5,845 nt of DNA, taken from a virus. Taxonomy: Duplodnaviria; Heunggongvirae; Uroviricota; Caudoviricetes. Of the stretch, positions 1-3,000 are shown piece after piece; position 1 is the stretch's first letter; each line of letters opens with the position of its first letter. The stretch lies in the IMG/VR virus record IMGVR_UViG_2537562194_000017. One strand, written 5' to 3'. Made by a program: the position numbers.

Positions 1-3000
1 CATACTGAGCAACGGGGCAAAATACAGCCCCACGACGTTTTCACCGGTGGATGCGCAGACGGTGGAACAACTGAAGATGACCGCTGAAATTGTCTGTTCG
101 GTGTTCCGTGTCCCGGCCTACAAGATTGGCGTTGGCCACCCGCCTTCCAGTGACAACGTGGAGGCGCTGGAGCAGCAGTATTATTCCCAGTGTCTGCAGA
201 CGCTGATTGAGTCCATTGAGCTGTTACTGGATGAGGCGCTGGAAACGGGGGAAAACGAGAGCACGGAGTTTGACGTCACCACGCTGCTGAGAATGGACAG
301 CGAACGGCGCATGAAAACACTGGGTGAATCGGTGAAAAATACGCTTCTCACGCCCAATGAGGCCCGTAAACGTGAGAACCTGCCGCCCCTTGCCGGCGGT
401 GATGCACTGTATCTTCAGCAGCAGAACTACAGTCTGGAGGCGCTGTCCCGTCGTGATGCCCGTGAAGATCCGTTCGCGTCGTCCGGGAAAAGAGTTTCAG
501 CCCAACTGCCTGACGGCGCATCTGACGGTAATAAGGCAATCAGTGAAACAGAGCATGATGCAGTGAAAGCGATGTTCAGGGGGATACTGAGAAAATGACG
601 GAACGGGAACTGTCCATTATTCGTGCACTGGGCGAAGAATTCTCCACGGTGCTGGCGGATTTACAGCGCACATTTGAGGGGAAGATGGCCGCGCAGGCAC
701 AAGCGTTTGAAGAGAAACTGGCTTCCCTGTCGGCGGTATTACAGAAGCATGTGACGGTGGATGAGGTACATCCGGTTCTGCAGGCGATGGTGGATGACGC
801 TGTGGGGACCATTCCGGTACCGCGTGATGGTCGTGATTATGATCCGGATGTACTGCAGCAGGCGGTGAATGATGCGGTTGCGAATATTCCGGTACCGGCG
901 GACGGCAAAAGTATTACCCCCGATGATGTGCGTCCGATGCTTGAGCAGATGGTGAAAGAGGCTGTAAGCCATATTCCTGTTCCGTGTGATGGTCGTGATT
1001 ACGATCCGGAAGTACTGAAGCAGGCGGTGAATGATGCGGTTGCGAATATTCCGGTACCGGCGGACGGCAAAAGTATTACCCCCGATGATGTGCGTCCGAT
1101 GCTTGAGCAGATGGTGAAAGAGGCGGTAAGCCATATTCCTGTTCCGCGTGATGGTCGTGATTACGATCCGGAAGTACTGCAGAAGGCGGTGAATGATGCG
1201 GTCGCGAATATTCCGGTACCGGCGGACGGCAAAAGTATTACCCCCGATGATGTGCGTCCGATGCTTGAGCAGATGGTGAAAGAGGCGGTAAGCCATATCC
1301 CTGTTCCGCGTGACGGTCGTGATTACGATCCGGAAGTACTGCAGAAGGCGGTGAATGATGCGGTCGCGAATATTCCGGTACCGGCGGACGGCAAAAGTAT
1401 TACCCCCGATGATGTGCGTCCGATGCTTGAACAGATGGTGAAAGAGGCGGTAAGCCATATTCCTGTTCCGCGTGATGGTCGTGACTATGATCCCGATGTT
1501 CTGCAGAAGGCTGTTCTGGATGCGGTGAGTGCCCTGCCGGCTCCGCAGGACGGGCGTGATGCCACGGCTCTGGAAATACTCCCCGCCATTGACGATCAAA
1601 AATCCTTTCCCCGGGGCACGTATGCCACACACCTGGGTGGACTCTGGCGGGCGTATGAAAAAACGCACGGGATGCGGGGATGGGAATGCCTGGTTGACGG
1701 GGTGGCGGATATCGACGTCAGCATGACGGATGAGCGGTTGTTCTCTGTGGTGATCCGGCAGAGCAGTGGCCAGTGTACGGAAAAAACATTTTCCCTGCCG
1801 GTGATGCTCTACCGTGGTGTGTTCAGAATCGGCGAAACTTACCACCCCGGCGATACGGTGACGTGGGGGGGCTCGCTGTGGCACTGCAACAGTATGACCG
1901 GTGATAATCCCGGAGAAGCTCATTCATCAGGCTGGACTCTGGCTGCAAAACGTGGGCGGGATGCAGGAGGTGGAAAGTGACAGCATTACTGACACTGGAA
2001 GAAATCAAGGCACATCTGCGTGTTGACCATGACGCGGATGATGAGATGCTGATGGACAAGGTTCGTCAGGCTACCGCCGTGCTGCTGGCCTACATCCAGG
2101 GCTGCCGGGATAAAGTGATTAGTGAGGACGGTGAGCTGATCCCTGGTGAGGCATTAACCCGGATGAAGGGGGCTGCCATGCGACTGACCGGGATGCTGTA
2201 CCGGAATCCGGATCTTGCTGAGCGGGAAGACCTCGTGCAGGGGGAACTGCCGTTTTCTGTTTCCGTGCTGATTTACGATTTGCGTTGTCCGACGGTGTTA
2301 TGAGGAGGGGGAATGGCAATATCTGCAGGTCGTCTGACACAGATGATAAGTGTTCTGAACCCGGTGTTAACCCGTAATGCTGCCGGAGAAATGACGGAAG
2401 AATGGGTGTCATGCGGGAAAATTCATGCGGATATCCGTGGCAGGAGCAGCCGGGAGCGGATGCAGTCCGGTGCGGAAATGGCGCAGGCGGAAATCCGCAT
2501 CTGGGTGCGCGGTCAGTCCGGCCGGGAAATCACGGCAGCGTCACGACTTCATGTGCTGAGTGGTCCATGGCGTGACCGGATCCTGAACGTTGTCGGGCTG
2601 CCCGTGCCGGATGCGACCGGCGGGCGTCTGGAAATTCTCTGTCGGCTGGGAGGGGAAAAATGATCGAAACCCTGCTGGATTTTTCGGGGCTGGAGGACAT
2701 CAGCCGCGATTTGCAGCTTCTGAGTGGTGCGGAAAATAACCGGGTGCTGCGTGAGGCAACCCGTGCGGGTGCGAATGTGCTGAAAGAAGAAGTGGTGTCA
2801 CGGGCACCGGTACGCAGGGGAAAACTGCGCCGCAATGTGGTGGTCCTTTCCCGGTGCTCCCGCGATGGCGGGATGGAATCCGGTGTCCATATCCGTGGTG
2901 TTAATCCGGACACCGGTAACAGCGATAACACCATGAAGGCGGATAACCCGCGCAATGCTTTCTACTGGCGGTTTGTGGAAATGGGGACCGTGAATATGCC

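Follow-up and report, generated by a model that had tools for sequence, protein, structure and literature searches.

The 5,845-nucleotide stretch of DNA analysed here (the window), from IMG/VR virus record IMGVR_UViG_2537562194_000017 (Caudoviricetes), carries the end of a portal gene, a gene for a repeat-containing protein, here termed X, and a series of connector and tail genes. We are confident that it represents the portal-to-tape-measure part of a long-tailed lambdoid Escherichia coli prophage of the 2851/BP-4795 type, in which the head genes are permuted, the phage's own protease-capsid gene precedes the portal gene, and X is not the capsid protein. Prophages of this type correspond to the genera Pankowvirus and Marienburgvirus in the ICTV taxonomy, and to Sp6/9/10/12 of E. 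coli O157 Sakai. The capsid question has an ordinary answer: the layout has been on record since BP-4795 and 2851 were sequenced, and the gene order is already known from the GenBank records of these two phages and of the Sakai prophages. What still merits attention is the X family, as yet uncharacterised, together with a misannotated two-gene portal/X unit.

Position of the protease and capsid genes

The first 2303 nucleotides of the window comprise the 3' end of the portal gene, the X gene and the adaptor gene, and hold a protease or capsid gene on neither strand. The portal segment (2–598, plus strand; the last 198 codons) is of the HK97 family (PF04860, E = 8.8e-28; phrog_2271 and phrog_12, 'portal protein'). 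The full-length portal has 454 amino acids in BP-4795 and in L001, 34 kb of sequence surrounding the best match in one piece to the window, and the portal_HK97 model (TIGR01537) recognizes a full-length relative (P0120) with an E-value of 2e-104. X is specified by an open reading frame (ORF) of 461 codons (595–1980, plus strand) whose start overlaps the portal stop in the tetranucleotide ATGA (595–598), and the product of the next gene (1977–2303, plus strand) is a gp6-like (Ad1) head-tail adaptor (PF05135, E = 4.2e-7; phrog_40, E = 3.5e-29). None of the ORFs in the window matched a protease or capsid family in Pfam and PHROG scans. Its long antisense ORFs likewise gave zero relevant protease or capsid matches, and a gene hidden on the opposite strand or in another frame was rejected on this ground. 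The initial annotation, which had reported that no protease or capsid gene lies between the portal and head-completion genes, was thus correct on this point by the ORF list, the family scans and the antisense ORFs, as it was in its gene boundaries.

Ninety phage records, mostly of Stx1a- and Stx2c-converting phages, match the window over its full length at 97–98% identity. Matches of the same identity and extent are carried by 1238 of 5426 complete E. coli genomes, with a median of five matching places per genome with any match, a place being a set of joined alignment pieces and not necessarily a whole copy. Over its 5.8 kb the window is 90–98% identical to Pankowvirus and Marienburgvirus phage records; lambdoid phages are mosaic, and assignment to either genus would be provisional. 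In L001 the order of genes is HNH endonuclease, TerS, TerL, a 645-amino-acid 'phage major capsid protein', a 73-amino-acid ORF, portal, X, adaptor and tail genes. The 645-residue product possesses a Peptidase_S78 domain (PF04586; residues 48–152, E = 3.8e-8) and a Phage_capsid domain (PF05065; residues 386–635, E = 3.1e-14) with a coiled-coil stretch between them, and is therefore a protease-linker-capsid fusion; its gene stops 979 nucleotides upstream of the base aligned to position 1 of the window. This layout recurs in an independent E. coli contig (L002) and in phages 2851, BP-4795 and phi330; the phi330 record contains several split genes in the module, perhaps through errors in manual Sanger assembly, and was left out of the allele calls described below. 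Of the related loci, 37 extended 3.6 kb or more upstream; every one of these carried the capsid gene, 30 as one uninterrupted match, and in nearly all it ended about 1555 nucleotides before the portal/X junction.

Outside E. coli, prophages of Yokenella, Serratia and Pseudomonas show TerL, a fused protease-capsid gene, portal, X and adaptor, and in a Variovorax prophage and one metagenome contig the protease and the major capsid protein are specified by separate genes, still before the portal. The module of the relatives therefore includes the S78 protease and HK97-fold major capsid protein typical of HK97-like modules, in genes that lie beyond the window. The canonical order of portal, protease, capsid and adaptor was found in none of E. 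coli, Yokenella, Serratia, Pseudomonas and Variovorax, and protease and capsid share one ORF (the 645-amino-acid ORF) in L001, L002, 2851, BP-4795, Yokenella, Serratia and Pseudomonas. By these comparisons the permuted gene order is deeply conserved and old, and in the window's own genome the capsid gene would, to judge by its relatives, also lie upstream. The initial annotation had allowed that the capsid and protease genes might be situated outside the window, and had proposed inspection of the upstream flank; in every relative examined an S78-protease/HK97-capsid gene was located there, directly before the portal (as a fused 645-codon gene, or as two adjacent genes in Variovorax). Its premise that protease and capsid must come after the portal fails for this lineage, in which the head genes are permuted. 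The order portal, protease, capsid is not universal, and where only one window is read, a module with permuted genes may therefore be mistaken for one that lacks a capsid.

Two circumstances tell against the overall reading. The window begins within the portal gene, so that its own upstream sequence is not covered, and an amber codon is already present in its tape measure gene, such that further decay upstream is conceivable.

The 73-amino-acid ORF (L001 13067–13288) is conserved; it lies some 0.7–0.9 kb upstream of window base 1, after the capsid fusion and ahead of the portal gene, whose annotated start it overlaps. Similar small ORFs specify 74 amino acids in Pseudomonas and 77 in Variovorax.

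Phage 2851 (Pankowvirus pv2851, FM180578/NC_049943), an Stx2c-converting siphovirus, resembles the window in possessing terS, terL, a 645-amino-acid 'major head protein / head maturation protease', portal, adaptor, head closure, gp10-like protein, terminator, tail tube, G/T and tape measure genes. At the protein level the C-terminal domain of its X shares about 94% identity with that of the window, for which the values against Pankowvirus and Marienburgvirus phages are 94–96%. It differs in that portal and X form one ORF of 859 amino acids (the G6 allele described below), where the window has two genes (G5), and in that the window carries the amber codon in the tape measure gene. BP-4795 (Marienburgvirus BP4795, NC_004813), which is Stx1-converting, shows no structural difference from the window in this module: the capsid gene (ORF56) is upstream of the portal, and separate ORFs for the portal (ORF58, 454 amino acids) and X (ORF59, 461 amino acids) overlap by 4 nucleotides. 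ORF59 has been annotated, wrongly, as a second 'portal protein'.

The HK97 module (terminase, portal gp3, protease gp4, capsid gp5, adaptor gp6) shares with this one the portal (TIGR01537/PF04860), the S78 protease and the HK97-fold capsid protein, as well as the gp6-like adaptor, the gp10-like protein and HNH-plus-terminase packaging genes. Unlike HK97, the lineage of the window has the protease and capsid before the portal and fused to one another, and an extra gene, X, between portal and adaptor. A 'tripartite capsid gene', with protease, scaffold and capsid in one ORF, has reportedly been described in Salmonella phage Gifsy-2 by Effantin et al. (2010, in Virology). The 645-amino-acid gene resembles it in that a single ORF specifies a prohead protease, a middle part resembling a scaffold and a capsid protein of the HK97 fold. 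The Gifsy-2 protease is ClpP-like, and the gene order is that of lambda, in which the portal gene precedes the capsid gene; here the protease is a Peptidase_S78 and the gene is ahead of the portal. By analogy, the upstream tripartite gene would build the head, its S78 protease domain and linker co-assembling with the capsid domain around the portal dodecamer, and protease domain and linker would afterwards be removed by proteolysis. Assembly followed by proteolytic removal is known from Gifsy-2 and HK97.

Particles of the family have been characterized. Induced Pankowvirus phiSTEC799-Stx2c possesses a prolate head of 43 x 86 nm, its non-contractile tail measures 155 nm, and it lysogenises MG1655 (PMC12029490). 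Pankowvirus phi330 forms plaques, with a titre above 1e9 plaque-forming units/ml (PMC12502783), and O157 Sakai releases a particle with an elongated head of 44 x 95 nm and a flexible tail of 147 nm; the head region of Sakai prophages Sp6, Sp9, Sp10 and Sp12 was described as 'slightly different' and organised unlike that of lambda (PMC2669165). The phage family of the window makes its own prolate head, with no borrowing. Since members of the family yield infectious particles, the idea of a satellite with a borrowed capsid is contradicted and unneeded.

That idea, also put forward in the initial annotation, holds that the window belongs to a satellite-like or mosaic module devoid of capsid and protease genes, which takes the capsid of a helper prophage. 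It would suit the content of the window itself, in which neither gene occurs, and the many co-resident lambdoid prophages of enterohaemorrhagic E. coli (EHEC) genomes (the median of five places given above), among which complementation has been proposed (PMC2669165). We consider it very improbable: a protease-capsid gene stands beside the portal in 37 of 37 loci, accompanied by TerS/TerL and a complete set of tail genes; members of the family can propagate by themselves in K-12 hosts; and the known capsid-stealing satellites are without tail modules, whereas this element has one. Phage satellites (P4-like elements, phage-inducible chromosomal islands (PICI), capsid-forming PICI and PICI-like elements (PLE)) lack some virion genes and depend on a helper phage for the capsid, the tail or both. 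Here the window has the full tail set and its relatives have terminase, protease-capsid, portal and tail-tip genes, so that with its own connectors the element does not fall in that class. It is just as hard to credit that the window stems from a degraded prophage in which protease and capsid genes, once located between portal and adaptor, were deleted and a repeat gene put in their place. The nonsense codon in the tape measure gene of the window copy and the label 'frameshifted', given by the NCBI pipeline to the G5 portal, would be in keeping with such decay. Against it, portal, X and adaptor with the capsid gene upstream are kept in Yokenella, Serratia, Pseudomonas, Variovorax and metagenome contigs; the same layout is native to the isolated phages 2851, BP-4795 and phi330, with no deletion scar; and the G5 frame agrees with the portal C-terminus of distant relatives. 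Protease and capsid genes in the interval from portal to adaptor were found in no close relative.

The portal/X junction

The portal protein of the window ends with ...VKAMFRGILRK*, and translation may restart at the ATG that overlaps its stop codon. Many E. coli proteins in the databases are portal-X fusions reading ...AMFRGDTEKMTERE..., and the sole difference between the window and these fused alleles is the length of a homopolymer run, with five G residues at 579–583 (plus strand) in the window, giving two genes (G5), and six in the fused ORF (G6). Exact scans of IMG/VR revealed G5 in 23 contigs and G6 in 37, with G4 and G7 in none of the contigs of that database, to which the search for them was confined. 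In the complete E. coli genomes, allele-specific 49/50-mers matched G5 at 720 places (371 genomes) and G6 at 1369 places (782 genomes), the fused state accounting for about two thirds of the E. coli copies. For the most part the distribution of the alleles mirrors the sequence clades: each of the 19 window-like sequences has G5, and five sporadic G5 alleles occur within G6 clades. A sequencing artefact was considered and is unlikely, both alleles being common in complete genomes and tracking clades, and G4 and G7 not having been found in IMG/VR.

The portal C-termini of Yokenella (...AKAMLRGLLTK*) and Serratia (...AKAMIRGLLAK*) are homologous to the RGILRK* frame of the window, with an ATGA overlap in each. 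A portal domain was detected in only one of 149 representatives of the X family. Because portal and X are separate genes outside E. coli, with the ATGA overlap and homologous portal ends, and because of this near-absence of portal domains, the two-gene state is ancestral, the fusion being a one-base insertion. Both states exist in named phages, two genes in BP-4795 and the fusion in 2851. The PGAP label on the G5 portal, a 'frameshifted' pseudogene in L001, therefore arises from the annotation. In an earlier study the Sakai prophages Sp6, Sp9 and Sp12 were given a defective portal (PMC2669165), and these scores may have the same cause. With the two-gene unit misread as a pseudogene, counts of 'defective' EHEC prophages may be inflated.

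The G run might alternatively be a programmed or phase-variable switch giving both free and portal-fused X, either through ribosomes slipping on G GGG G, which a rare AUA codon follows, or through reversible G5/G6 mutation. A -1 slip on G5 would yield exactly the protein encoded by G6, both alleles are common with G4 and G7 not found in IMG/VR, five G5 alleles are scattered inside G6 clades, and the downstream frame is intact in most copies of either allele. The alleles are, however, largely bound to lineages (19 of 19 window-like sequences being G5), relatives outside E. coli are without a G run at this site, and ordinary translational coupling needs no more than the ATGA overlap. Neither a canonical X_XXY_YYZ heptamer nor a downstream structure was identified at the junction, unlike the G/T chaperone site, which has A_AAA_AAG. 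A switch is on balance improbable.

The repeat protein X

X is an uncharacterised accessory protein of the head module, translationally coupled to the portal through the ATGA overlap. An AlphaFold2 (AF2) model built with 54 homologues shows a confident 50-residue N-terminal helix, ten short helices and a confident beta domain at residues 343–451. The long alpha-helix (residues 3–52; 601–750, plus strand) has a block-mean predicted local distance difference test (pLDDT) score of 76–91. It is followed by a tandem array (811–1511, plus strand) of 4.3 copies of a 162-nucleotide (54-amino-acid) unit (Tandem Repeats Finder score 1269, 96% matches), each unit consisting of two short helices with 12-residue linkers of the type IPVPxDGxD. 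The beta domain is encoded at 1621–1947 (plus strand), and its last ~47 residues (1807–1947, plus strand) form a module like those of carbohydrate-binding module (CBM) families 5/12, that is, of the chitin-binding type. The fold prediction that the initial annotation had called for on the 595–1980 product thus returned a helix, helix-linker repeats and a beta domain in place of an HK97 capsid fold, in agreement with its view that an HK97-fold capsid protein is not what the repeat gene encodes. No capsid fold was detected in the AF2 model or by three fold searches; X as capsid protein was rejected on these results and on the presence of the real capsid gene upstream.

In relatives X has 353, 407, 461, 515 or 569 amino acids, in steps of one 54-residue unit. 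The copy number of the 162-nucleotide repeat differs among near-identical prophages, and there is an additional series of 379/405-amino-acid X proteins. Draft assemblies frequently break within 811–1511, which leaves many 'partial portal protein' entries.

When the whole of X was compared with solved structures by sequence search nothing significant was found, and a profile of its C-terminal domain matched chitin-binding modules only. The Pfam CBM_5_12 score of the window protein (16.6 bits) falls below the cut-off of 26.2, and some homologues have a precomputed PF02839 match; the three-dimensional fold of the C-terminus is that of a chitin-binding domain. The X C-terminus may therefore be called CBM5/12-like by its modelled fold, and glycan binding is putative. 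In BFVD, X has as its structural neighbours phage proteins with collagen repeats or ChiC_BD, as well as proteins of the tail-fibre type.

At E <= 1e-3 this very large family comprises 5187 clusters (formed at 50% identity), of which the stricter limit of E <= 1e-30 leaves 610. X and its homologues gave no family match in the NCBIfam scan and none above threshold in Pfam, NCBIfam and PHROG function labels; a precomputed domain, PF28083, is listed for homologues. X follows the portal in Yokenella, Serratia, Variovorax, Pseudomonas and one metagenome contig. In NCBI and UniRef its homologues are named 'phage portal protein' or 'gp6-like head-tail connector protein', names evidently inherited from neighbours or fusions, and hundreds of stand-alone homologues in other genera are misnamed through such adjacency or fusion. 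The stand-alone homologues P0270–P0389 and P0390–P0488 (from Enterobacter, Salmonella, Cronobacter, Pseudomonas, Acidovorax, Variovorax and others) possess neither of the domains named. P0249, a distant relative of 1237 amino acids (37% identical), is also a portal-X fusion, with long repeats on another linker motif (LPxPEPEPLPDI), and its sequence suggests an independent fusion together with repeat diversification.

In portal structures of the HK97, SPP1, P22 and T4 types the C-terminus is in the crown, inside the capsid. X would be a virion protein at the portal vertex, and we tentatively place it on the inner face of the portal, within the head on the crown, because fusion to this C-terminus is tolerated in the isolated phage 2851; we give this placement slightly less than an even chance. 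X would be produced in step with the portal by translational coupling, and its long N-terminal helix would extend the portal crown. Helical extensions or partners on the inner (crown) side, encoded with the portal or right after it, are known in the C-terminal barrel of P22/Sf6-type portals and in SPP1 gp7. The 50-residue N-terminal helix and the fusion to portal C-termini make X a possible analogue of these, from which it differs in showing no sequence or fold similarity and no MuF domain; the tandem repeats and CBM-like tip of X are missing from these proteins.

Several points tell against a firm placement of X. The repeat region was modelled at low confidence, the whole model having a mean pLDDT of 66.1 and a predicted template modelling (pTM) score of 0.29, and a tip of the carbohydrate-binding type is more in keeping with an external fibre than with an internal protein. 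The literature search yielded neither virion proteomics nor a structure of X; the phi330 paper gives mass-spectrometry maps for its short-tailed phages only (PMC12502783). The chief rival, less probable in our judgement but a serious one, is that X is an external head or neck fibre or decoration, with the N-terminal helix as anchor, the repeats as a stalk of variable length and the CBM5/12-like tip binding cell-surface or mucosal glycans. The anchor-stalk-tip architecture, the collagen-repeat/ChiC_BD and tail-fibre-type neighbours in BFVD and the CBM matches of the C-terminus all argue for a fibre. X moreover occupies the last slot of the head module, right before the adaptor, even where five ORFs lie between portal and X, and the tail tube protein of the same phage bears a surface Ig-like domain. 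On the other side, portal-X fusions are common (the 1369 places in complete genomes, and phage 2851), and an X fused to a portal C-terminus inside the capsid could hardly get outside, which is why the inner-crown placement is preferred.

A broader proposal, which we regard as unlikely and advance only as speculation, is that X stands for a very large family (more than 5000 clusters at 50% identity) of virion proteins coupled to the portal, by which a permuted head module of the HK97 type is defined. These would act on the inner crown as a trans-encoded 'barrel' or as internal proteins whose tip binds glycan or peptidoglycan, G5/G6 would in E. coli toggle between the free and the portal-fused form, and many 'frameshifted' portals would be intact two-gene units.

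A role for X as a head-length ruler was not supported, more repeats not being matched by longer records. Records with a match span of ~5517 nucleotides (two fewer repeat units) are 50.2–55.9 kb in length and those with a span of ~5845 nucleotides 43.8–51.9 kb, a weak comparison since the record lengths are those of extracted prophages.

Neck and tail genes

By the ORF list and the Pfam and PHROG scans, all genes of the window are co-directional on the plus strand and form one late operon. Downstream of the adaptor are genes for a head closure or head completion protein (Hc1; 2313–2663; PF05521, E = 1.9e-17; phrog_25), an HK97 gp10-like neck or tail-completion protein (2660–3106; PF04883, E = 7.3e-10; phrog_5) and a gp17-like tail terminator (3103–3447; PF11367, E = 1.1e-7; phrog_347). 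The major tail tube protein (3514–4230; phrog_158, E = 1.1e-117; PF13895, PF13927 and PF06199) possesses an Ig-like domain at its C-terminus, of the Ig_2/Ig_3/I-set type, which also matched Hoc-like decoration PHROGs. This domain is a putative second surface-adhesion domain in the same virion.

The tail assembly chaperone pair (4236–4915) consists of a G-like ORF (4236–4610; PF06222, E = 1.5e-60) and a T-like ORF (4634–4915, -1 frame; PF06223, E = 4.6e-19). The slippery heptamer A_AAA_AAG is located at 4601–4607, just 5' of the stop codon of the G-like ORF, and the -1 frame beyond it leads straight into the T-like ORF, as expected for a G/GT programmed frameshift.

The window closes with the 5' part of the tape measure gene (4967–5845; PF20155, E = 5.2e-24). 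The in-frame amber TAG at 5504–5506 is codon 180 of a 1080-codon gene, with the frame open beyond it, and alignment to the 1080-codon tape measure gene of L001 shows CAG at this position. The prophage copy represented by the window is probably tail-defective unless the amber codon is suppressed.

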